DNA of 50,356 nt from Candidatus Omnitrophota bacterium (GTDB lineage: Bacteria > Omnitrophota > Gorgyraeia > Gygaellales > Profunditerraquicolaceae), in the NCBI GenBank assembly GCA_020058085.1, contig JAGVER010000014.1:99747-150102 (forward strand). The letters run 5' to 3'. The notes below the pieces were generated by a model. That model saw nothing but the letters and a program-made list of their open reading frames with translations, was not told the DNA's origin and made no database searches. Positions within the stretch are counted from its first letter, which is position 1. Every line of letters begins with the position of its first letter. This document shows, one piece after another, positions 3,168-39,669 of this stretch. The position numbers and the translations under genes are program-made.

Positions 3168-3968
3168 ATGCCGGAGCTGCCGGAAGTTGAGACTATAAAA
3201 CGGGATTTAGAAAAAGTTATTATAGGGAAAAAGATTACCGAAGTTTGTGTGCACAACTCTAGAGTAATCCGGGAGCCTTCTTTACAAAAATTTAAACAAG
3301 GATTAAGCGGAGTGAGGGTTAACAAGGTTTTGCGCTGCGCAAAGGTCCTGATATTAGAATTATCAAATGCCAAGTCTTTGGTTATCCATTTGAGGATGAC
3401 TGGCCAACTTGTTTACCCGGGTGATGGCAAGAGCGCGAGAGTAACTTTCTATTTATCTGACGGCAAGAGGCTGGATTTTAATGATCAGAGGTTATTTGGT
3501 GAGCTTAGGCTTTTAGATGACTGGAGGAAGCTAAAATTTATCCAGGATTTGGGTCCCGAGCCAAAAGACCTAACCTCAAAGAGGTTTAAAGAGATGCTGG
3601 CTATGAAAAAAACTAAAATTAAACCATTGCTTATGGATCAGAAATTTATTTCTGGTATTGGTAATCTTTATGCTGCAGAAATTCTATTTCGTGCTAAAAT
3701 TAATCCTGAACGTAAAGCAAGCGAACTTTTAAACAGGGAAAAAGAACTTTTGTTTAGCTCTATACAGGATATTTTAGCCGAGGCCATACGCTATGGTGGT
3801 TCTTCCGTGGATGATTATGTAAGATTATCTGGGGGGAAAGGGAAATATATAAAGTATCACAGAGTTTACGGCCGGGAAGGTAAGCCCTGTTTTATCTGTA
3901 AAACTTTAATAAGAAGGAATGTTTTGGGAGGAAGAGGCACTTATTTCTGTCCTAAGTGCCAAAAGTAG
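3168..3968 (+). CDS. mutM: formamidopyrimidine-DNA glycosylase
   Basis: N-terminal MPELPEVE catalytic motif. C-terminal zinc finger CFIC-x16-CPKC. 266 aa. Confidence 0.9.
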   Translation: MPELPEVETIKRDLEKVIIGKKITEVCVHNSRVIREPSLQKFKQGLSGVRVNKVLRCAKVLILELSNAKSLVIHLRMTGQLVYPGDGKSARVTFYLSDGKRLDFNDQRLFGELRLLDDWRKLKFIQDLGPEPKDLTSKRFKEMLAMKKTKIKPLLMDQKFISGIGNLYAAEILFRAKINPERKASELLNREKELLFSSIQDILAEAIRYGGSSVDDYVRLSGGKGKYIKYHRVYGREGKPCFICKTLIRRNVLGGRGTYFCPKCQK

Positions 3969-3970
3969 AT

Positions 3971-4675
3971 ATGAAAAAACGACTTAAAATAAATGGCCTG
4001 GTTATGTTGTTAGCTACTCTTCTATTGGCGGCATTTCCCGCGGTATTTTTGCGTAAAAATATAACTGGTTCTTCAGATAATGCCGCGGAGATCTTTGGGG
4101 TTGCTTCGATTCTTTTAGGGCAGTTAGTGCGGGTATCCGCACGGGGCTTCAAATCCGAACATTCTCAGAATGGCAATGTTTTGATCGAAGGTGGCCCCTA
4201 TTCCTTAGTGCGCAATCCTATGTACTTGGGTATATTTTTAATCGGGCTGGGAGTTGTGCTCATGCTTTTTAAATGGTGGGTAGTAGCTATTTTTATAGTA
4301 TTTTTTATCATTCGCTACATATTATTAATATACCAAGAGGAGAAAAAACTAAAGTCTCTATTTCCTGAAAAATATCCTGCTTATTGCAGGAATGTCCCTC
4401 ATCGTATACGCCCTTCAATAAAGGCGCTTTTAGAAAAAGACATCTGTGAATATCTTCCTTTGAAATTAAGTTGGATAAAGAAAGAGATCGGCTCTATTAT
4501 CGCGGTTTTATTCTTGGTCCTTTTGGTAGAATCTTGGGAGGATATCAAGCGCGGCGGGATACAGGAATATTTTAGAGAATTAGCGGGGATCTCAGCGGTT
4601 ATCCTGTTATTTGTATTCTTGGTTGGTTATTTAAATTGGTGTACGGTTAATCAGAATGGTTCAAATAAAAAATAA
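3971..4675 (+). CDS. ICMT/phospholipid-methyltransferase-family membrane protein
   Basis: Polytopic membrane protein with the RNPMYLG motif typical of isoprenylcysteine carboxyl / phospholipid methyltransferase-like proteins. The start is ambiguous (ATG 3956 or 3971). Confidence 0.6.
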   Translation: MKKRLKINGLVMLLATLLLAAFPAVFLRKNITGSSDNAAEIFGVASILLGQLVRVSARGFKSEHSQNGNVLIEGGPYSLVRNPMYLGIFLIGLGVVLMLFKWWVVAIFIVFFIIRYILLIYQEEKKLKSLFPEKYPAYCRNVPHRIRPSIKALLEKDICEYLPLKLSWIKKEIGSIIAVLFLVLLVESWEDIKRGGIQEYFRELAGISAVILLFVFLVGYLNWCTVNQNGSNKK

Positions 4676-9903: not shown

Positions 9904-11191
9904 GGTATACACGAATATTATTCAGATTGCCGGTGACGTGATTACAGTTGAAGCCGAAGCAATAGGATATATGGAGATTGCCGAAGTTACTGCTCGTCGC
10001 GGAATTTCTTTGGCGCAGGTTATTCGTATTGACGGCAAGAAGGTTTCCTTGCAAGTCTTTGCCGGGAGTCGCGGTATATCTACTGGAGATAGAGTACGTT
10101 TCTTAGGCCATTCGATGCGTGTATCAAGCGGAGATGACCTTTTGGGCCGTATCTTTAATGGCAGTGGGATACCCTTAGATCGCGGCCCGGCTTTATCGAA
10201 TAATCTGATTGATATAGGTGGTCCTGCGGTAAATCCGGTAAAGAGGATTATTCCAAACAAGATGATCCGCACCGGAATCCCGATGATTGATGTTTTTAAC
10301 TCTTTGGTAGAGTCTCAAAAGCTTCCGGTATTTTCTATTGCCGGAGAGCCTTATAATGAACTTTTGGCACGTATTGCCGTACAGGCAGAAGTAGATATTA
10401 TTATTTTAGGTGGTATGGGATTAAAATATGACGACTATTTATTCTTCCGCGATATATTGAAAGAGCAGGGAGCGATATCGCGCTGCGTATTCTTCATTCA
10501 TACCGCAGCTGACCCGGTTGTAGAGTGCTTGCTTGTCCCGGATATATCTTTGGCAGTCGCCGAAAACTTTGCGCTTGCTGGTAAACGTGTACTAGTCTTA
10601 CTTACGGATATGACAAATTTCAGCGATGCTCTTAAAGAGATCTCTATTACTATGGAGCAGGTTCCTTCTAATCGTGGATATCCCGGCGACCTTTATAGCC
10701 AACTTGCTTCAAGATACGAAAAAGCAGTTGATTTCGATAACGCTGGTTCTATTACAATACTATCAGCAACTACTATGCCCGGTGATGACGTTACCCACCC
10801 TGTGCCGGATAATACAGGGTATATTACTGAAGGGCAATTTTATCTCAAAGGGGGAGTTATTGAGCCATTTGGTTCGTTAAGCCGGCTTAAGCAGCAAGTT
10901 AATGGCAAGACCCGGTCTGATCACCGTGCGATTATGGATACAATGATTCAACTCTTCTCTGATTATCGTTCGGTATTAGAAAAGCAATCTATGGGTTTTC
11001 AGATGAGTCTTTGGGATAAGAAACTACTTAAATATGGCAAGCTTTTCGAAGAGAAGATGATGTCGCTTAAAGTGAATATTCCTCTTGAACAGGCATTAGA
11101 TCTGGGCTGGCAGATTATGAGTGATTGTTTTTCTCCGGAAGAGACCGGAATTAAACGTTCAATCATTGAAGAATACTGGCCCAAATCATAA
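9896..11191 (+). CDS. atpB: V-type ATP synthase subunit B
   Basis: 431-aa alpha/beta-family fold without a canonical P-loop. Contains LLTDMTNF and [11 protein letters not shown] motifs. It follows subunit A with an 8-nt overlap. Confidence 0.92.
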
Positions 11192-11237
11192 CACCCGGCC
11201 TTAAAGGAGTGGCCGGTGCGCCCTTCTGGGCAGGAAG
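11192..11237 (+). promoter_or_regulatory. conserved two-hairpin intergenic RNA motif, copy 1
   Basis: CACC[C]GGCC - TTAAAGGAGT - GGCCGGTG, then GCCC-TTCT-GGGC, then AGGAAG before ATG 11243. It starts immediately after the atpB stop. Confidence 0.6.
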
Positions 11238-11242
11238 TAAAA

Positions 11243-11860
11243 ATGGCGAGAATCAAACTTACCAAAGGAGAGCTTAAAAAACAGAGAGACGCTTTAAAGC
11301 AATACGAGCGTTACCTCCCCACACTACAACTTAAAAAACAGCAATTGCAACTTGAAATTCTGCGTCAGTCGGTAATCCTTGAAGAAAAGAAGTGCAATCA
11401 AGAAAAAATCATAAGTTCGATAATTTCCTGGATAGGGTTGCTTGAGGACCCGATAATATCTATAAAACCATATCTGGTTATTAACAAAATAACAACCGGT
11501 TTAAAGAATATCGCAGGAATAGATATTCCTGTATATGAAAAAACCGAATTTGCTCCTGCGGAGTATGATTTATTCCTTGCTCCTTTATGGGTGGACGCGG
11601 CAATTGATCACCTGCGCGATTACATATCTCTAGATACAGAGATCTCCGTAATTGGGAAAGGGATAATAATATTGAAACAAGAGTTACGTATCACTACCCA
11701 GAGAGTAAATTTGTTTGAGAAAATTAAAATTCCGGAGTCTAAAGAGAATATACGCCTGATTAAGATTTATATCGGAGATCAATTAAGTAATGCTGTCGGG
11801 CGTTGTAAAATCGCTAAAAGAAAGATCGAAGATTTTGTTTTAGAGGAGGCTAGCGTATGA
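11243..11860 (+). CDS. atpD: V-type ATP synthase subunit D
   Basis: MARIKLTKGELKKQRDALK... is a typical D-subunit N-terminus. ATG 11243 is preceded by AGGAAG. The GTG at 11216 in the ORF track lies inside the intergenic hairpin motif and is not preferred. Confidence 0.85.
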   Translation: MARIKLTKGELKKQRDALKQYERYLPTLQLKKQQLQLEILRQSVILEEKKCNQEKIISSIISWIGLLEDPIISIKPYLVINKITTGLKNIAGIDIPVYEKTEFAPAEYDLFLAPLWVDAAIDHLRDYISLDTEISVIGKGIIILKQELRITTQRVNLFEKIKIPESKENIRLIKIYIGDQLSNAVGRCKIAKRKIEDFVLEEASV

Positions 11861-14096: not shown

Positions 14097-14174
14097 GAAA
14101 ATAATTCCGGCCTTAATCTGTCTATAAACCCGCTTACTAAATTGCTTGCAATTTTGGAATATCGGGTATAAATG

Positions 14175-14211
14175 AAAACGGACAACTTTAGTTTTTAACT
14201 ATTATCGTCCG
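14175..14211 (-). terminator. possible intrinsic terminator of the minus-strand lipoprotein pair
   Basis: On the minus strand, CGGAC...GTCCG outer stem with an inner TAGTT/AACTA stem, followed by TTTT. The stem is imperfect with a large internal loop. Confidence 0.3.
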
Positions 14212-14224
14212 CTACAAAAAGTTA

Positions 14225-14443
14225 TTATTTACCTGTAGGTTGAGAGAGCTGGATGTTTGAGTTGGTTGTTTCGTTAGTACCAATAACACCCAAGAAAGCA
14301 TTGTATTGAACTTTTTGTTTTTCTATGTTTAAACCACCACGACCATCGCTGGAGATGTTTGATACAAAAGGACCAGCTGTAGAGCAGCCTGCAAGCGTTA
14401 CGAGCATTAGAGGTATTGCTATTAAGATTGCTATTTTCCTCAT
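14225..14443 (-). CDS. small lipoprotein (72 aa)
   Basis: MRKIAILIAIPLMLVTLAGC has a perfect lipobox (LAGC). GAGGAGG precedes ATG 14443. The longer ORF-track start at 14500 lacks an RBS. Confidence 0.7.
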   Translation of the reverse strand: MRKIAILIAIPLMLVTLAGCSTAGPFVSNISSDGRGGLNIEKQKVQYNAFLGVIGTNETTNSNIQLSQPTGK

Positions 14444-14474
14444 TTTATCCTCCTCAGTTTGTTGTAGAGAAGAT

Positions 14475-14876
14475 TTAGGGCTTTGATTTTTGTTCTCCAA
14501 ATTTATAACCGGGGCAATAATAATAATCAGCCAAAGCAGTCATAGAGTCAACTGAGCTGAAACCTCCACCACCTACACCATTATATACTGAAGCCGAACC
14601 GGAACTTCTCTGACCTCTTGCCAAGTCGGTTATAACGACTACGTTAGCACCGTAAAGGGTTGCTCTTTGTTTAAAATAATCGTAACACTTTCCCCCTGCT
14701 TGGCTACAAGCTTTCTGAATTTTATACTCACAATTTTTATTGGGAACTTCTTTCTCAATTCTAACCTGTTCCCATCCTGGGAATCGTCTATTGTATCGTA
14801 TATTTCGGCTTGCACAGCTAGATAGAGAGATTAAAAACACTAATACTAAGATTGAGGATGTAATTTTTCTAAACAT
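14475..14876 (-). CDS. lipoprotein (133 aa, possibly DUF4156-like)
   Basis: Signal peptide plus lipobox LSSC. Cys-containing mature domain with YGANVVVI and a Gly-rich stretch. The family assignment is from memory only. Confidence 0.6.
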   Translation of the reverse strand: MFRKITSSILVLVFLISLSSCASRNIRYNRRFPGWEQVRIEKEVPNKNCEYKIQKACSQAGGKCYDYFKQRATLYGANVVVITDLARGQRSSGSASVYNGVGGGGFSSVDSMTALADYYYCPGYKFGEQKSKP

Positions 14877-14907
14877 TATTCCCCATTTTATAAAAGATTA
14901 TGTCCCA

Positions 14908-14936
14908 ATTATACTCCTAAAGGAGGCCTATGCCAA
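14908..14936 (-). promoter_or_regulatory. sigma70-like promoter for the minus-strand lipoprotein operon
   Basis: On the minus strand: TTGGCA, a 17-nt spacer, then TATAAT, about 30 nt upstream of ATG 14876. The spacer contains the palindrome CCTCCTTTAGGAGG. Confidence 0.55.
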
Positions 14937-14990
14937 GAAAAAATAGTTAGATTTTTTCACTTCCTGCGTCTTTGTGTAGGAGGCGTAGAA

Positions 14991-15158
14991 ATGATTAGTC
15001 CGATTACTTGGCTATGGAACATAAGGCATGGGAAGCTATTAGAGCGGACAAGGCGAACAATTGATACTTTAATTCTGATTAACAATATCAAGAGGAAGCA
15101 GTGTTGCTACTACCTGTGCAGGTATCTAAAGAAGGTTGTTGCTCGGGTTGAGGGTTAG
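14991..15158 (+). CDS. candidate small basic Cys-containing protein (55 aa)
   Basis: Below the ORF-track size cut-off. AGGAGG lies 7 nt before ATG 14991. Translation: MISPITWLWNIRHGKLLERTRRTIDTLILINNIKRKQCCYYLCRYLKKVVARVEG. There is no homology evidence. Confidence 0.25.
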   Translation: MISPITWLWNIRHGKLLERTRRTIDTLILINNIKRKQCCYYLCRYLKKVVARVEG

Positions 15159-15167
15159 CGGTATAAT
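15139..15167 (+). promoter_or_regulatory. sigma70-like promoter (TTGCTC-17-TATAAT)
   Basis: -35 TTGCTC at 15139-15144, a 17-nt spacer, and -10 TATAAT at 15162-15167. The palindrome TACCTGTGCAGGTA at 15111-15124 lies just upstream. Confidence 0.4.
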
Positions 15168-15220
15168 CTTCTCAATATCACAAAGGAGAGGTAGTGGGGT
15201 TAAAGTAGTTAAATATAAGG

Positions 15221-15248
15221 CAACTCTCTAAATAGGGGTTGTTTTTTT
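15221..15248 (+). terminator. intrinsic terminator / attenuator hairpin upstream of the DUF1622-like gene
   Basis: CAACTC (15221-26) pairs with GGGTTG (15236-41), with one G-U pair, followed by T7 (15242-48). It lies 26 nt before ATG 15275. Confidence 0.5.
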
Positions 15249-15274
15249 AAAAGAAAGGAAGGTATATTAATAAA

Positions 15275-15601
15275 ATGGATACTCTACACAGCGTTATTAA
15301 TAACATCAGTCTTTTATTAAATATCATCGGTGCTTTAATTATTATTTGGGGGGCAGGTATTTCTCTGTTTGAATTCTTAAAAAAAGAGATTGTGGATAGA
15401 AGCAAGGCAATGCAATTAAATGAAGCTATTCGTATTCGTTTGGGAAGTTATTTAGTTTTAGCTTTGGAATTTTTTATTGCTGGCGATATCATTAAAACCA
15501 TTATCACTCCTACCTGGGAGAGCCTAGGAATATTAGGAGCGATTGTTGTAATCCGAACGGTATTAAGCTATTTTTTAACCAAGGATTTAAAAAAGATTTA
15601 A
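15275..15601 (+). CDS. DUF1622-like small membrane protein
   Basis: 108 aa with predicted TM helices. RLGSYLVLALEFFIAGDIIKTI resembles DUF1622 proteins, from memory. Confidence 0.6.
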   Translation: MDTLHSVINNISLLLNIIGALIIIWGAGISLFEFLKKEIVDRSKAMQLNEAIRIRLGSYLVLALEFFIAGDIIKTIITPTWESLGILGAIVVIRTVLSYFLTKDLKKI

Positions 15602-15657
15602 TTTAGAAGATAACTAATATTTATCATTTGTGCAGTAGGGACATTGAAGGAGGGAAA

Positions 15658-16008
15658 ATGAAGAAGATAATTAACTCCGTTGTTCTGTTCATATTTATTA
15701 TTAATATGACTGGCTGTGCGACAATTCTTAAACCTAAAGAAACTCAAATGAAAGTAACAAGTGAGCCAGAAGGTGCAGAGATTTATCAAACTGTTGGAAG
15801 GAGGTTCGGCAGGGGTAAAGAAGTTAGAGTAGGCAGAACGCCGACCACAATAACTCTTGATAATAAGCGCGAAGCCAACCTCACCTTTAGGAAAGATGGA
15901 TATGAAGAAATCACCTATAGGGCTAAGCCATACAAGCATCCTGGTTGGCTGCTTGTTTCATTTGCCTGTGCTTATAATTCCAGCTTTTATAGATTGGGTA
16001 ACACATAA
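15658..16008 (+). CDS. PEGA-domain lipoprotein, apparently frameshifted near its 3' end
   Basis: GAAGGAGGG RBS. MKKIINSVVLFIFIINMTGC signal peptide and lipobox. VTSEPEGAEIY is a PEGA motif. A family-like C-terminus (IDWVTHNSYYFKEREIKVTLDP) continues in the +1 frame to 16096. Confidence 0.65.
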   Translation: MKKIINSVVLFIFIINMTGCATILKPKETQMKVTSEPEGAEIYQTVGRRFGRGKEVRVGRTPTTITLDNKREANLTFRKDGYEEITYRAKPYKHPGWLLVSFACAYNSSFYRLGNT

Positions 16009-16150
16009 TTCTTATTATTTTAAGGAAAGAGAAATTAAAGTAACTCTCGACCCAGTATTACCGAAACAAGCCGACCAAATTAATACTAAGAAATAAAGTA
16101 AGTAGTAATTAGCTCATCCGCTTCATCATCTGGGCACTAAAGACATTGGA

Positions 16151-17584
16151 ATGGGAATGAAGATATTGCTGATTAATCCCTTTGGTTCGAATTGGGTCGA
16201 GGGTATGGAAGACTATACAGAGATAGCGATCCGCATGGCGCCTATTGGAATCCTATCTATTGCCGCGTATCTTTTGCGAGAAAAGCATAAAGTAGCGGTC
16301 CATGATTGCGGGGGGCCGGTGAACCGCCTTGGGATCGAAGAGGTTATGGCCCGCGTCAATTCGTTCAGGCCCGATATCGTTGGTTTTACTGCTGTAACTT
16401 CGAGTTTCATGAATGCATATCTTTTGGCGGAGAAGATCAAGCGGGAAGCGTCCCATATCAAGATTGTCTTCGGTGGTGTACATGTTTCCGCTCTAGGTAG
16501 GAAGATACTCGAAAAGTTTTCGTCCATAGATTTCGTTATTACCGGAGAAGGTGAGAAGGCCATGGCTGATCTCGCAGCAGGTGTTCAGCTCGGGAAGATT
16601 CAGGGATTGGTGTTTCGTGAGGGCTCTAATATACGAGAGAATGATCTGCGCACTGACCTCTGCGAACTCGACACGCTTCCGTTTCCCGCTTACTATACGC
16701 TTGATGGTTTTCCGAGGAGCTTTAAGGCGGCGCTGTTTAATTATCCGAAAGCCCCAACCGCAACTATTATCTCTAGCCGTGGCTGTCCCTATCAGTGTTC
16801 CTATTGCGACCGTTCGGTCTATCGCAGAAGCTTTCGTTTCAATTCGGCGGAATATCTTTATGAGCATATGATCTCTCTTAAAGTTGATTTCGGCATTAGG
16901 CACGTTATTTTCTATGATGATCTGTTTACTTTTAATCGTAACCGGATCGAGAAATTATGCGAACTGTTGCAAAAGAAACCGCTTAAGATGACCTTTAACT
17001 GCGCTGTGCGCGTAGGGCATATTGACGATGATTTGCTCAAATTGCTAAAAGCCTCGGGGTGTTGGATGGTTAGTCTTGGAATCGAATCAGGCGCGCCAGA
17101 GATTCTTGCTAGACATAAGACAAAAGCAGATTTTTTTGAGATGAAGATGACGGTGAAAAGAATTCAGAAGGCAGGTTTACGGGCAAAAGGGCTTTTTATG
17201 ATGGGCTTGCCCGGAGAGACCGAGGAGACTATCAAGATGACGACAGATTTTATCAATGGCCTTGAACTGGATGATATGAACATGACTAAGTTTACGCCAT
17301 TCCCGGGGTCACCTATTTATCAGAACATCCGGGAAGAGGGGTCGTTTGAGGAAAAATGGGAGCTGATGAACTGCCTTAATTTTGTTTTTGTCCCCAAGGG
17401 CATTAAATCAAAGGCGCGTCTTGAGAATTTGTATAAGAAATTCATTAAACAGTTCTATTCCAGTCGGAACTGGATAAGTAAATTCCTGCCGCTGATCTTT
17501 AAGTCTCCTCATAGTATCTACCGGATTGTGAGAAATTTGCCGATTTTTCTGAAGATTAAAAGCGATTTTGAGCCGAGAAAGTAG
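16151..17584 (+). CDS. cobalamin-binding-domain (class B) radical SAM protein
   Basis: N-terminal MKILLINP... Rossmann-like B12-type domain, then the SSRGCPYQCSYCD CxxxCxxC cluster. 477 aa. It is markedly more GC-rich than its neighbours. Confidence 0.8.
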   Translation: MGMKILLINPFGSNWVEGMEDYTEIAIRMAPIGILSIAAYLLREKHKVAVHDCGGPVNRLGIEEVMARVNSFRPDIVGFTAVTSSFMNAYLLAEKIKREASHIKIVFGGVHVSALGRKILEKFSSIDFVITGEGEKAMADLAAGVQLGKIQGLVFREGSNIRENDLRTDLCELDTLPFPAYYTLDGFPRSFKAALFNYPKAPTATIISSRGCPYQCSYCDRSVYRRSFRFNSAEYLYEHMISLKVDFGIRHVIFYDDLFTFNRNRIEKLCELLQKKPLKMTFNCAVRVGHIDDDLLKLLKASGCWMVSLGIESGAPEILARHKTKADFFEMKMTVKRIQKAGLRAKGLFMMGLPGETEETIKMTTDFINGLELDDMNMTKFTPFPGSPIYQNIREEGSFEEKWELMNCLNFVFVPKGIKSKARLENLYKKFIKQFYSSRNWISKFLPLIFKSPHSIYRIVRNLPIFLKIKSDFEPRK

Positions 17585-17725
17585 TGGGCTCGTTCTCTCA
17601 AATATCCATTTGCCAAGCCTCATATTTTAGGTTAAAATAGTTAAAATTCAGCATAGTAATACATCCGCGCTCTGGCGCATTAGTTTACATTTTCGGTAGA
17701 GAATAAGGTATGTTTTAAAAGTTCT

Positions 17726-17754
17726 TTGACAAAATCGAACCAACGTATTATTGT
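17726..17754 (+). promoter_or_regulatory. sigma70-like promoter (TTGACA-17-TATTGT)
   Basis: Consensus -35 at 17726-17731, a 17-nt spacer, and TATTGT at 17749-17754. It lies 19 nt upstream of ATG 17773. Confidence 0.5.
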
Positions 17755-17772
17755 GTATATTGGTGATTAATA

Positions 17773-18453
17773 ATGAAAGAAAAAGAGAGAGATGAAGCAA
17801 GAAGATTAAGAAGAGACGGTTGGTCCTTAAGAACTATTTCAAAAAAGATCAATTGTTCTAAGAGCTCTGTAAGTCAGTGGATAAGAGATATTAATCTTAC
17901 GTCGGTACAAATATCAAAGCTAAAATCGGCTCAGGATAGAGGTAGAGCCAAAGCTGCAAATCATCCTAATAGCTCTAGGGTGAAGTGGGCTAGGATACGC
18001 GAAGAGGCAATTTCTTCAGCGAGAAAAGAATTGCCTTCTCATATATCATTTTTGCATCTTAAATTAATCGGTGCAGTTCTCTATTGGGCAGAGGGGTATA
18101 CTGCTTCAAGAAACCTGTTTATTTTTGCTAACAGTGACCCAGCGATGATTTGTTTAATGAAGTTATTCTTGGAGCAAGTTTGTAAAGTTCCTCCAGATCA
18201 ATTCCGAGGAAGAGTTAATATTCACCCCCATTTAGATATTAAGGCAGCCGAAAAGTATTGGTCAAAAGTAAGTAAGATATCCATCCGTAGATTTCATAAG
18301 CCTTTATTAGCCGTTAGCAAGGCGAGTAAACAAAAGAGAAAAACATTGCCATATGGAACATTTAGAATTGTTATTTCCGATGTTTTTTTATGCTGTAAAA
18401 TAAAAGGTTGGATTGATAAATTAAAAACTTGGGCGATTAGCTCAGCTGGTTAG
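17773..18453 (+). CDS. HTH-domain protein with a LAGLIDADG-like C-terminal region
   Basis: N-terminal RLRRDGWSLRTISKKINCSKSSVSQWIR is a resolvase/terminase-type HTH. LYWAEGY...FANSDP resembles a LAGLIDADG-type motif. The 3' 23 nt run into tRNA-Val. Confidence 0.5.
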   Translation: MKEKERDEARRLRRDGWSLRTISKKINCSKSSVSQWIRDINLTSVQISKLKSAQDRGRAKAANHPNSSRVKWARIREEAISSARKELPSHISFLHLKLIGAVLYWAEGYTASRNLFIFANSDPAMICLMKLFLEQVCKVPPDQFRGRVNIHPHLDIKAAEKYWSKVSKISIRRFHKPLLAVSKASKQKRKTLPYGTFRIVISDVFLCCKIKGWIDKLKTWAISSAG

Positions 18454-18507
18454 AGCATCTGCTTTACACGCAGAGGGTCAGGGGTTCAAGTCCTCTATCG
18501 CCCACCA
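18431..18507 (+). tRNA. tRNA-Val (anticodon TAC), CCA encoded
   Basis: Hand-folded cloverleaf: acceptor GGGCGAT/ATCGCCC, D arm GCTC/GAGC, anticodon stem TCTGC/GCAGA with loop TTTACAC, T arm AGGGG-TTCAAGT-CCTCT, discriminator A, CCA. Confidence 0.9.
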
Positions 18508-20759: not shown

Positions 20760-21982
20760 GAAGAGTTGTTATAACCGGACTAGGGGCAATTACTCCCTTG
20801 GGTAATGATGTCGCTACGTTAATTTCTGGGATCGAATCCGGGAAGAGCGCGGTTGAGCATATTCCGGAGTGGGAGAATTATATTGGGATGCGCTGTACGG
20901 TAGCAGCACCAGCCCATATTGAGAATGAAAAATTAATTCCTCGTCAAAATCGTCGTTCTATGGGGCGTTTAAGTATTTTTGCTGTGCAGGCAGCTGAACA
21001 AGCAATCAAGGATGCCGGAATTAAAAGTGGATCATTAACCGGTGGGAAGCTAGGTTGTGTTATGGGTTCGACTATGGGAAGCGCTGAGAGTATTGCCGAG
21101 GCTTTCGAAATCATGGGCACGGGAAAAGATTTGAGTAAGTTATCCGCAACTAAATTTTTTCAGTGTGTATCGCATACTGCGGCAATGAATGTTGCCCAGT
21201 ATCTAGGTATAACCGGGTATGTTTTAGCGACATCTGCTGCCTGTGCCTCAGCATTACAGGCAATAGGTACAGGTTTTGATTTAATTCGTCTGGGTAAGCA
21301 GGATATAATGCTATGCGGAGGGGCAGAGGGTTTGCATCCGACAGTAGTAGGTTCTTTTGATGTACTTTATGCCACATCATCAAATTATAATAAAGAGCCT
21401 AAAAAGACGCCACGGCCTTTTGATTCTAAGCGTGATGGATTAGTCTGCGGCGAGGGGAGCGGAGTATTGGTTCTAGAGGATTATGAAATGGCACGTAATC
21501 GTGGGGCCAAGATTTACGCTGAAATTATTGGGTATAACAGTTGCGGTAATGGCAGCCATGTAAGTGAATCAAATCATGAAGCCATAGTTTTCTGTATTCA
21601 AGAGGCGCTAAAGAGCGCGGGCATTACATTCAAAGATATAGATTATATAAATGCTCATGCTACCGCTACTATTCAAGGGGATAAAGAAGAGGCCAATGCT
21701 ATTCGTCATATTTTTGGCGATAGTGTTCCGGTAAGCAGCCTAAAGGGTTATATTGGGCATACCTTAGGTGCATCCGGGGCGATAGAGTTGATTGCCTCTT
21801 TAATAATGATGCAGAAAGGTAAAATTTACCCGACTCTGAATTTAGAAGATCCGGATAAAGAGTGTTCCGGGATACAGCACGTGATGAAGCCCGTAAATAA
21901 AAAAATAAATATACTTTTAAAAAACTGTTTTGCTTTTGGCGGAATTAACGCGGTGTTAATTTGTAAAAGCACCCGGCCTTAA
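20750..21982 (+). CDS. fabF: beta-ketoacyl-ACP synthase II-type ketosynthase
   Basis: Catalytic Cys (ATSAACASALQAIG) and His-His (NAHATAT, GHTLGASG). 410 aa. Confidence 0.88.
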   Translation: MQLRRVVITGLGAITPLGNDVATLISGIESGKSAVEHIPEWENYIGMRCTVAAPAHIENEKLIPRQNRRSMGRLSIFAVQAAEQAIKDAGIKSGSLTGGKLGCVMGSTMGSAESIAEAFEIMGTGKDLSKLSATKFFQCVSHTAAMNVAQYLGITGYVLATSAACASALQAIGTGFDLIRLGKQDIMLCGGAEGLHPTVVGSFDVLYATSSNYNKEPKKTPRPFDSKRDGLVCGEGSGVLVLEDYEMARNRGAKIYAEIIGYNSCGNGSHVSESNHEAIVFCIQEALKSAGITFKDIDYINAHATATIQGDKEEANAIRHIFGDSVPVSSLKGYIGHTLGASGAIELIASLIMMQKGKIYPTLNLEDPDKECSGIQHVMKPVNKKINILLKNCFAFGGINAVLICKSTRP

Positions 21983-22011
21983 AGGATGGGCCGGTGTGCA
22001 CTTACTGTGCA
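21970..22011 (+). promoter_or_regulatory. conserved two-hairpin intergenic RNA motif, copy 2
   Basis: CACC[C]GGCC - TTAAAGGATG - GGCCGGTG, then TGCAC-TTACT-GTGCA. The KS stop codon TAA is the TAA of the loop. Confidence 0.6.
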
Positions 22012-22012
22012 A

Positions 22013-22062
22013 CACCCGGCGCTAAAGGAATTGCGCCGGTGTGTCCATTCTGGGCAAGGAGG
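22013..22062 (+). promoter_or_regulatory. conserved two-hairpin intergenic RNA motif, copy 3 (tandem to copy 2)
   Basis: CACC[C]GGCGC - TAAAGGAATT - GCGCCGGTG, then TGTCCA-TTC-TGGGCA, then AGGAGG 6 nt before the ACP ATG at 22069. Confidence 0.6.
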
Positions 22063-22068
22063 ATATGA

Positions 22069-22326
22069 ATGACTGAACAGGATGCTATAAGAATGACTAA
22101 TGAAGTATTTATTGATTCTTTTGAAATTCCAAAGGATAAGTTAGCCCCGCAGGCAAATATTTTTAATGACTTAGGGCTGGATAGCCTTGATATCGTAGAT
22201 TTAGTGGTGGCTTTACAGAAGAAATTCGGGATTATGATCAGAAGTGATGAACGCGTACGCAACATTCGCACTTTAGGTGATATTTATCAATTTATTTTAG
22301 TGATAAAAAAAGAGCTCGAGAAATAA
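22069..22326 (+). CDS. acyl carrier protein (ACP-1)
   Basis: 85 aa with the LGLDSLDIVDLV phosphopantetheine-attachment motif. Confidence 0.9.
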   Translation: MTEQDAIRMTNEVFIDSFEIPKDKLAPQANIFNDLGLDSLDIVDLVVALQKKFGIMIRSDERVRNIRTLGDIYQFILVIKKELEK

Positions 22327-36790: not shown

Positions 36791-36793
36791 TGA

Positions 36794-36835
36794 GGCCACA
36801 ACTTATGGAGCAAAGCGAACATAAGTTGTTCGGCC
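36794..36835 (+). promoter_or_regulatory. long intergenic hairpin A upstream of ACP-2
   Basis: GGCC-a-CAACTTATG [12-nt loop] CATAAGTTG-ttc-GGCC gives 13 bp with one internal loop. Confidence 0.5.
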
Positions 36836-36853
36836 GAATTAATCCCGTTGAGT

Positions 36854-36884
36854 GCAACAAAATTATCGTAGAGAATTTTGTTGC
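36854..36884 (+). promoter_or_regulatory. long intergenic hairpin B upstream of ACP-2
   Basis: GCAACAAAATT [atcgtagag] AATTTTGTTGC is a perfect 11-bp stem with no U-tract. Confidence 0.5.
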
Positions 36885-36925
36885 GTTGACGAGACGGGAT
36901 AAAGCAAATAACGAGAGGAGAAAAA

Positions 36926-38376: not shown

Positions 38377-39024
38377 ATGCGTATATCCGGAATTGGGGTT
38401 ATCTTGGATAAGAGCCGCAAAGATAAGTTTGTTTTAAAAGATATCCGTCGCGCAGACGACTTAATCAAGATGGCGGTATTGGCTGCTTATGACGCGTTTG
38501 TTGATAGTGGATTAGATAATAGCGCGAAGGATAATCTTGGTCTAATTTTGGCTACGGCTTTTGGGCCGCACGTAACTACATTTCGTTTCTTGGATGAAAT
38601 CTTAGATTATGGGGATGCCAATGTTTCGCCCACATTATTTTCGCATTCTGTGCATAACGCTGCCAATTCATATATATCTTCTAACTTGGGTATTCATGGT
38701 CCGACTCTAACTCTAACTAATTTTAGCGCATCTTTCTATCAAGCTCTCTTAGTTGCGCAAAGCTGGTTAAATGAGGGTAGATGCGAAAATATACTGGTCG
38801 GTAGTGTAGAACAATATGGGAAGGAGATGGAATATATTCTTTCTGGGGTAGCGCCTGAACTTAATTATAAAGAGGGGAGCGCGTTTTTCTTGGTTAGCGT
38901 AGGGGAGTGTTTAAAAAAATATTGCTCAATTTGTGTATTACCGTATCGAGATGAATTCGCTTCTGGTTTTAGCTTAGCCACGAGTTTACTTGAAGATAAA
39001 AGTAATAAAGGCACCCAATTCTAA
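38377..39024 (+). CDS. short ketosynthase-like partner (chain-length-factor-like)
   Basis: 215 aa. Starts 3 nt after KS-3. No catalytic Cys/His/His pattern. Parallels the 31532 gene. Confidence 0.55.
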   Translation: MRISGIGVILDKSRKDKFVLKDIRRADDLIKMAVLAAYDAFVDSGLDNSAKDNLGLILATAFGPHVTTFRFLDEILDYGDANVSPTLFSHSVHNAANSYISSNLGIHGPTLTLTNFSASFYQALLVAQSWLNEGRCENILVGSVEQYGKEMEYILSGVAPELNYKEGSAFFLVSVGECLKKYCSICVLPYRDEFASGFSLATSLLEDKSNKGTQF

Positions 39025-39055
39025 AGGATGAATTGGTGCCCATAACTATGGGAGG
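39012..39055 (+). promoter_or_regulatory. conserved two-hairpin intergenic RNA motif, copy 4
   Basis: CACC[C]AATTC - TAAAGGAT - GAATTGGTG, then CCCAT-AACT-ATGGG running into GGGAGG before ATG 39061. The upstream stop TAA is in the loop. Confidence 0.6.
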
Positions 39056-39060
39056 TAAGT

Positions 39061-39669
39061 ATGAGTATCTTGAGGAGGTTACTTGTGTCTTGTATTGTTG
39101 TTTTTGCCGCGGCATCTTTATTATGTGCTACTGATGCTGAAAGTACGGCGTATTACACAAGAGTAAATATCTGGTATGAGGATCCGGCAAAAATAGTTTC
39201 TACTAATTATCATCGTGGAGCAATTATTCCCTATGGTTCAAAAGTAAAGATCACAAGCAAGAGTGGTGAGAAGATTAAATTTACTGTTGAAGATCAAGCA
39301 GGTATTACATTTACTTTAACCAATATAAGTAAATATAGCCTGATGAGTCTGGATGAATTATCTAAGCTTTATTTTTCGCAGAATAATCCTAAGGCGCAGG
39401 GCGCAGAGTTTAGCAAGTTTGACGCACGGGAAAAAGAGAATATTGAGAATGGTACGATAGAGCAAGGGATGAGTAAAGAAGCAGTCATTGCTTCTTATGG
39501 CTATCCTCCTAAACATAAGACTCCCGCTCTTACCAGTAATGTTTGGAATTATTGGGATGCGCGCTCTGTCAGGAGATTAGTTACTTTTAAGAACAATAAA
39601 CTTACCAAACATGAGGAGATAAATGAATATGAGAGTGGGCGTCCGCGCTGGTACCATTACGTCCCATAA
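39061..39669 (+). CDS. secreted protein with a BamE/SmpA_OmlA-like C-terminal region
   Basis: N-terminal signal peptide (LLVSCIVVFAAASLLCA). GMSKEAVIASYGYPP resembles the BamE-type motif. The function is unknown. Confidence 0.45.
   Translation: MSILRRLLVSCIVVFAAASLLCATDAESTAYYTRVNIWYEDPAKIVSTNYHRGAIIPYGSKVKITSKSGEKIKFTVEDQAGITFTLTNISKYSLMSLDELSKLYFSQNNPKAQGAEFSKFDAREKENIENGTIEQGMSKEAVIASYGYPPKHKTPALTSNVWNYWDARSVRRLVTFKNNKLTKHEEINEYESGRPRWYHYVP

Follow-up and report, generated by a model that had tools for sequence, protein, structure and literature searches.

The stretch of DNA analysed here (50,356 nt, hereafter the window) comes from a member of the Omnitrophota, uncultured and mostly ultra-small bacteria whose compact genomes make a dispersed repeat conserved across the phylum unexpected. 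Its genes are otherwise packed, with overlaps or spacers of less than 16 nt, and no more than four intra-operon spacers exceed 30 nt; three of them are accounted for by copies of a two-hairpin unit, the fourth being the interval 36791–36925. An earlier note, made from the sequence, had described four co-oriented copies of this unit, and their exact positions were reproduced: the pattern CACCC-N4-7-TAAAGGA-N5-10-GGTG has exactly four matches in the window, all on the + strand, and none in 100 dinucleotide shuffles of the window, and a covariance model searched with filters off recovered only the same four copies. Their hairpins are as follows.

11192..11218, + strand: unit 1, hairpin 1 (CACC, bulged C, GGCC stem, UUAAAGGAGU loop, GGCC, GGUG)
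11220..11231, + strand: unit 1, hairpin 2 (GCCC UUCU GGGC)
21970..21996, + strand: unit 2, hairpin 1 (loop TAA, 21980–21982, is the ketoacyl synthase stop codon)
21997..22011, + strand: unit 2, hairpin 2 (UGCAC UUACU GUGCA)
22013..22041, + strand: unit 3, hairpin 1 (GGCGC stem, loop UAAAGGAAUU)
22042..22056, + strand: unit 3, hairpin 2 (UGUCCA UUC UGGGCA)
39012..39038, + strand: unit 4, hairpin 1 (AAUUC stem; loop TAA, 39022–39024, is the stop codon of a 215-aa ketoacyl synthase-like gene)
39039..39052, + strand: unit 4, hairpin 2 (CCCAU AACU AUGGG)

All four copies lie in spacers or gene ends at three intra-operon junctions, and the gene contexts proposed for them were borne out by Pfam. Unit 1 separates the V-type ATPase subunit genes B and D; the atpB stop codon TAA (11189–11191) lies directly 5′ of hairpin 1, the Shine–Dalgarno (SD) sequence AGGAAG (11232–11237) directly 3′ of hairpin 2, and the atpD ATG at 11243. 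Units 2 and 3 stand in tandem, with one A (22012) between them, at the junction of a ketoacyl synthase (KS) gene and an acyl carrier protein (ACP) gene; the SD sequence AGGAGG (22057–22062) comes after hairpin 2 of unit 3, and the ACP ATG is at 22069. Unit 4 is preceded by the gene for the 215-aa protein, in which Pfam finds the KS N-terminal domain only, and followed by that for a 202-aa protein with a hydrophobic N-terminus and no Pfam match; here the 3′ strand of hairpin 2 overlaps the SD sequence GGGAGG (39050–39055), with the ATG at 39061. The stop codons had been read correctly, the ORFs ending at 11191, 21982 and 39024, and the next gene's SD sequence does lie at the end of hairpin 2 for copies 1, 3 and 4, copy 2 running into copy 3. 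Hairpin 1 measures 27–31 nt and the full unit, made up of both hairpins and one purine, approximately 40–46 nt, hairpin 2 beginning 0–1 nt after hairpin 1 in every copy. Single-sequence RNA folding of the window copies returned hairpin 1 every time and hairpin 2 less consistently; the latter is backed by covariation across the wider family.

That family became visible when the search was extended beyond the window, as the earlier note had proposed. A strict pattern, CACCCGGC-N1-3-TAAAGGA-N2-6-GCCGGTG, was scanned against one genome per GTDB species (185,579 species genomes, 596 Gb), for which we estimate about one match by chance. It returned 58 loci, of which 57 are in Omnitrophota metagenome-assembled genomes (MAGs), representing approximately 45 assemblies; some of the assemblies carrying such loci are labelled Planctomycetales, and the 58th locus is a coding-region match in Azospirillum. 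Viral contigs yielded no matches. The motif had not been recognised as a named one, and Rfam release 15 agrees: at the gathering score the window gives two tRNAs only, and the best match around units 2 and 3 has an E value of 0.58. Nor did literature searches on palindromic repeats or RNA motifs of Omnitrophota/Omnitrophica bring up a description of the family. The units are a previously undescribed hairpin repeat family of about 40 bases, almost confined to Omnitrophota.

Since hairpins at operon junctions are common, and unrelated palindromes occupy other junctions in relatives, the units might in principle be stabilising or terminator-like hairpins that arose independently and converged. 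Such an origin is extremely improbable for at least 16 specified bases, together with a shared architecture, at non-orthologous sites in approximately 45 assemblies against about one chance match; moreover, no U-tract follows hairpin 2. Four other classes of element were considered and rejected. A kissing loop or pseudoknot between the hairpin-1 loop, the hairpin-2 loop and downstream sequence, sought by eye across the variants, is not conserved, and the conserved unpaired bases are too few for a self-cleaving ribozyme. Integron attC sites, which are 57–141 nt long and flank cassettes, have a similar foot and extrahelical base, but the units sit inside ATPase and fatty-acid-type operons. In a CRISPR-like array, the 'spacers' of approximately 15 nt would be the conserved hairpins themselves.

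A two-hairpin covariance model gave 94 matches in the window and the 58 loci, across which the bulged C hardly varies and neither does the CACC/GGUG foot, any rare change in one strand of the foot being compensated in the other (GGCC/GGCC, CCCC/GGGG, UACC/GGUA). The upper stem of hairpin 1 has five pairs and varies freely, and hairpin 2 has the consensus U-N-C-N-C / G-N-G-N-A with a pyrimidine-rich loop. The TAAAGGA loop had been called invariant, which is true within the window only; elsewhere the loop may be UAAAGGA, UAUAGGA, UAUCGGA or UAUUGGA, or belong to a separate TTATTTGAATT / UUAUUUGAAUU class. The compensatory changes first noticed among the four copies are a property of the whole family, in which 94.5% of cells are paired and both sides have changed in 13 of 14 pairs, values that none of 500 shuffles reached and that collapsed in slid controls. 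Because the copies are paralogous repeats and the alignment was fitted to the model, what this covariation demonstrates is that structure is constrained at the level of the family and not of the individual site. Furthermore, G·U (17) is not commoner than A·C (14) among the non-Watson–Crick cells, which fits random decay and not long-term selection on one RNA strand. Copies are no more alike within a MAG than between MAGs (distances of 0.42 and 0.40, in a sample biased by the seeding pattern), and so show no sign of recent master-copy bursts. Their density is uneven, with four in the 50 kb of the window versus approximately ten in 580 kb of homologous loci.

The matches fall into 77 arrays (63 single, 12 double and 2 triple) with a period of approximately 43–46 nt. 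All 14 multi-unit arrays are direct tandems, and a head-to-head pair of units was seen only once (L047, 6005–6112). The strong tie to gene junctions and to the next gene's SD sequence, proposed from the window, is a feature of the family: an SD sequence, start codon and ORF follow directly 3′ on the same strand in 41 of the 77 arrays, and on the opposite strand in 2, in a test passed by 3.9% of random positions. The register is tight, the SD core of 36 of the 41 gene-followed arrays starting no more than 1 nt from where hairpin 2 ends. Purines flank the unit on both sides, 5′ of hairpin 1 in 87 of 93 units and 3′ of hairpin 2 in 92 of 93; the 5′ flank reads (T/A)-R-A before the paired CACC, and at the 3′ end the paired GGTG leads into hairpin 2. 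Orientation was judged by the SD and ATG test, a greedy gene set and a count of strand skew, with 77 matches on the coding-strand side against 21 (about 4:1). GC skew is positive across the window (1–50356, +0.08 to +0.19) and nearly all of its genes are on the + strand, so that gene orientation and strand composition are confounded where the orientation of the repeats is concerned. Roughly one-third of the upstream ORFs have their stop codon within the unit, either the TAA of the loop or the TAG in GGAUAGG, about the share expected from random reading frames. Judged from their first residues, the genes 3′ of arrays presumably include rpsC, rplU, panD, ribH, purE, fabG and those for a cold-shock protein, HU and SSB; several of the downstream genes (rpsC, rplU, cold-shock, HU, SSB, fabG and ACP) would be highly expressed.

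The strong sense bias and the fixed register to the SD sequence are what a cis-acting RNA module would show, and a module of this kind is a possible, if doubtful, explanation. Hairpin 1 would be recognised, through its foot, bulged C and GGA loop, by a factor conserved in Omnitrophota, be it an RNA-binding protein, a ribonuclease or the 30S subunit, and the module, lying just 5′ of the SD sequence, would enhance or insulate translation initiation or stabilise the downstream cistron; it would have spread by duplication because it is useful, leaving antisense and decayed copies as by-products. Arrays of two or three units precede genes read from their first residues as encoding cold-shock and glycine-rich proteins, and single units precede rpsC, rplU, HU, SSB and fabG (again from first residues) and ACP (by Pfam). 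Loop, foot and bulge are conserved phylum-wide, the loop AAAGGA with the 3′ foot GGUG matches an extended SD sequence, and in hairpin 2 of the orthologous rplV–rpsC copies a G-C pair is replaced by A-U (L034 versus L037 and L048), a compensatory change.

Orthologous sites in relatives tell against such a module. From a metagenome scan with AtpD we obtained 80 orthologous loci, and none of the approximately 50 atpB–atpD junctions inspected holds a unit, stop and start codons overlapping or adjoining in most of them. One of these loci, L059, is syntenic with the window at 80–83% nucleotide identity, and its empty site (..AAATTAGCCAAGAAGTAAAAATG / ..CCCAAATTAGCCAAGAAGTAAAAATG) differs from the window by a clean 40-nt indel equal to hairpins 1 and 2 (11192–11231). 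On this comparison the insertion cost AtpB three C-terminal residues, with a new TAA at the 5′ edge of the insert, and the AGGAAG that serves atpD in the window corresponds to former AAGAAG codons. At the KS–ACP junction, the two tandem units of the window are matched by a unit nested in the loop of another in L059, and by 14 nt with no unit in L061. Two further sets of orthologous sites (L138 filled, L094 empty; L098 filled, L131 and L115 empty) have hairpin 2 adjoining an AGGAGG that is present in the empty sites too; indeed, hairpin 2 abuts an SD run shared with the empty sites in all of the filled sites compared. The junction before the c-subunit gene (atpK) is 11 nt long in the window, whereas L102 has a decayed mosaic array of approximately 230 nt there and L098 an antisense unit.

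The filled and empty sites differ by a clean 40–44 nt, with no terminal inverted repeats or clear target-site duplication in these comparisons and an ambiguous repeat of 1–2 nt at most (TA for L138 versus L094, CA for L098). A subfamily with a UACC/GGUA foot is nested in the loop of a CACC/GGUG unit in both L059 (13238–13331) and L125 (13916–14007), which suggests that hairpin loops may themselves be insertion targets. Gain, loss, tandem duplication, nesting and decay of units take place on the time scale that separates genomes of approximately 80–88% identity.

Other repeats and indels lie in the same regions. The fourth long spacer of the window (36791–36925) contains two different strong hairpins (−46 kcal/mol), and there are partial matches to it in L051, L094, L016 (two copies) and L041, the one in L094 lying in a stretch of approximately 120 nt (15072–15192) outside the L138 alignment; the spacer appears to represent a second family of dispersed palindromic repeats in Omnitrophota. 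Unrelated palindromic inserts are found at atpB–atpD junctions approximately 100 nt upstream of the atpD start in L060/L061, L066, L070, L071, L092 and L115, that of L060/L061 being MITE-like with terminal inverted repeats (GTCATYCTGAAG...CTCAGAATGAC), and inserts seem to have landed at this junction repeatedly. A 4.3-kb segment of the window (14103–18402), between atpK and a tRNA gene (18431–18504), is absent from L059, where the tRNA directly follows atpK; the segment is an indel or an island by the tRNA gene. Near this indel, a half-remnant of the motif had been proposed at 14107–14116, which turned out to be a bare 10-nt identity with no covariance model match.

Units are also found as reverse complements beside or within riboswitches. 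The FMN riboswitches that Rfam identifies in L031, L045 and L020 are on the strand opposite to the units. In L045, where the riboswitch (3833–4079) lies upstream of ribBA, reverse-complement units fill P3 and P6, giving loops of 87 nt (13 in the model) and 46 nt (4 in the model), respectively. Unit-expanded P3/P6 loops were seen in L045, L031 and L020 and, by sequence, in L002, L040 and L047, the expanded aptamers holding one or two reverse-complement units and spanning 190–276 nt versus 138. In L047 Rfam calls no FMN riboswitch at the gathering score, although on our reading there is riboswitch core sequence near the units on both strands, and unit insertions may hide riboswitches from standard scans. 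Reverse-complement units also separate TPP and c-di-GMP riboswitches, which are on the opposite strand, from the gene that follows, and are found ahead of a 16S gene. On our reading of the sequence, those at the TPP and c-di-GMP riboswitches are apparently placed after the terminator hairpin, and the A-run that follows hairpin 2 on the unit's own strand in antisense cases would be the complement of the terminator U-tract.

Taken with the empty junctions of close relatives, whose genes show no sign of lost function, these riboswitch copies weigh against the claim that covariation reflects selection on a regulatory RNA at each site. Units of perfect consensus are transcribed as reverse complements within riboswitches, other units are nested, tandem or decayed, G·U pairs show no excess over A·C mismatches, and the density of the family is low as well as uneven.

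A CsrA-type dual site fares worse, and we consider it very unlikely. In such a site a dimer would bridge the GGA of the hairpin-1 loop and that of the SD sequence 20–30 nt downstream, repressing translation, and this spacing is within the bridging range known from E. coli and B. subtilis systems. Although no part of the loop is as constant as its GGA (AAAGGA, AUAGGA, AUCGGA), the loop has 8–10 nt in place of the usual hexaloop, and the second loop class (UUAUUUGAAUU) lacks GGA. The CACC/GGUG foot, the bulged C and hairpin 2 are all features that CsrA does not need, and the insertion polymorphism argues here as it does against the cis-acting module. A weak, non-significant Rfam similarity to PrrB/RsmZ was noted at 22018–22037 (8.9 bits, E = 6.3), and no csrA gene was found in approximately 1 Mb of sampled Omnitrophota sequence.

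Our data are most readily accommodated by a model in which the units are a non-autonomous, REP/MITE-like hairpin insertion repeat specific to Omnitrophota, and we regard this explanation as probable. It is the gain and loss at orthologous sites, the tandem and nested copies, the occurrence in both orientations, the purine adjacency and the decay that identify the units as insertions, and they are likely to be small mobile insertions ahead of ribosome-binding sites rather than proven regulatory RNA. In this model, a trans-acting enzyme would recognise the unit in its folded, single-stranded form (as DNA or possibly as RNA) by the CACC/GGTG foot, by a loop of the U-A-N-N-G-G-A type and by the bulged C that lies five pairs beneath it, and would place new copies beside purine runs. 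Its targets would be the AGGAGG of ribosome-binding sites in the sense orientation, and A-runs complementary to terminator U-tracts in the antisense orientation. Copies would survive where they do no harm; in packed operons this leaves the short gap from a stop codon to the SD sequence that follows. There the unit would bring a TAA (in the loop) and often a TAG (GGAUAGG), in two frames, and so re-terminate the truncated upstream gene, while the SD sequence would stay single-stranded.

Within the mRNA, the two hairpins would form a structured spacer of 50 nt in place of the ancestral stop/start overlap, as at atpB–atpD. They would probably uncouple the cistrons and insulate the ribosome-binding site; like REP elements, they may also slow exonucleases. 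Such effects on RNA would be secondary and not the reason for the presence of the unit. The orientation bias could come from strand-specific single-strand insertion, from the choice of target, or from selection against pairing of an antisense loop (AUCCUUUA) with the SD sequence, and these three sources are inseparable by the present data. Several observations count against the insertion model: the strong orientation bias and precise SD register also fit a selected RNA function; sequence features are kept phylum-wide, beyond what is typical of REP families; the compared sites show neither a clear target-site duplication nor terminal inverted repeats; the copies give no sign of recent bursts; and several genes 3′ of arrays are, on our reading, highly expressed ones. 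A tblastn search for a mobilising gene with E. coli RayT, a Y1 transposase of the kind that REP families have as a single-copy gene between repeats, in approximately 1 Mb of sampled Omnitrophota loci, gave spurious matches only (a radical-SAM-like ORF and membrane-protein ORFs).

Mobility and function could also be combined, in that the mobile module may have been domesticated across the phylum as a 'portable ribosome-binding-site leader' and be read on the mRNA by an Omnitrophota factor or the 30S subunit. The 30S subunit would act through the SD-like AAAGGA...GGUG, and insertion 5′ of an SD sequence would re-programme the translation or stability of the downstream gene. We consider this combination unlikely; were it true, the family would not be junk but a naturally occurring expression cassette that spreads itself.

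As well as adding a repeat family to the Omnitrophota, the insertion model has practical consequences. The units alter gene ends, by supplying stop codons and shortening C-termini, they would break translational coupling in operons, and they add enough length to riboswitch loops to affect detection by Rfam; gene callers will be confused by them, as will RNA-motif screens that take covariation among paralogous repeats as evidence of regulation. The precise docking at SD runs and the nesting in loops point to a copying mechanism that reads hairpins and is specific for its target, and the family represents both a handle for finding the mobilising enzyme and a marker for strain-level variation in Omnitrophota.

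Among known systems, REP elements and REPINs, which are mobilised by RAYT transposases in Proteobacteria and others, resemble the units as short (20–40 nt), G+C-rich imperfect palindromes with a conserved foot and an extrahelical base (PMC3733652, PMC3116915). Like them, the units are dispersed in the extragenic spacers of operons, keep their structure whilst stem sequence varies by subfamily, persist vertically over long periods, and are transcribed within mRNAs, where such hairpins can affect stability and translation. They are also small and repetitive in the manner of REP elements, with four copies in 50 kb and 94 matches in the window and the 58 loci. However, one end of the elements in the REP superfamilies bears an unpaired tag, GTAG or CGTC (PMC3733652), which the units lack, their foot being the paired CACC/GGTG. 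Instead of the inverted dimers of REPINs and BIMEs, the units form direct tandems and nested insertions; they are mostly found upstream of the next SD sequence, whereas REP elements lie downstream of coding regions or between convergent genes; their hairpin 1 is always accompanied by a second, different hairpin; and they have the same sequence features across a whole phylum.

The likeness to MITEs (the Correia elements of Neisseria, the Rickettsia palindromic elements, RUP/BOX; PMC3184786, PMC10969869) is one of behaviour. The units, too, are non-autonomous and polymorphic between close relatives, as observed at the atpB–atpD, KS–ACP and pre-atpK junctions and in the L138/L094 and L098/L131/L115 comparisons; they are tolerated in permissive places, here the final codons of the genes that precede them and the FMN riboswitch loops P3 and P6, and like MITEs can supply or alter expression signals. 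In contrast to MITEs, which are single long foldbacks of approximately 100–300 nt, the unit is far smaller (approximately 40 nt), sets two hairpins side by side, and lacks both terminal inverted repeats and any demonstrated target-site duplication. The possibility raised at the outset, that the copies would prove to be a known REP/MITE family scattered regardless of junction and orientation, holds in spirit, as their behaviour is REP/MITE-like; the family is not a known one, and its copies are not scattered in that way.

IS200/IS605 elements such as IS608 and ISDra2 transpose as single strands through HUH enzymes, which recognise, on one strand, imperfect subterminal hairpins that carry an extrahelical base. 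Their insertion is specific for strand and sequence, takes place beside a short target and causes no duplication; this offers a mechanistic analogy only, and would explain both the purine-run adjacency and the orientation bias of the units. The left and right hairpins of these insertion sequences resemble each other, whereas hairpins 1 and 2 of the units do not, and no transposase gene was found between or near the units. Lacking the tag, the inverted dimers, the terminal inverted repeats and the target-site duplications, the Omnitrophota units stand outside any described family, and the way in which they work is that of REP elements and MITEs.
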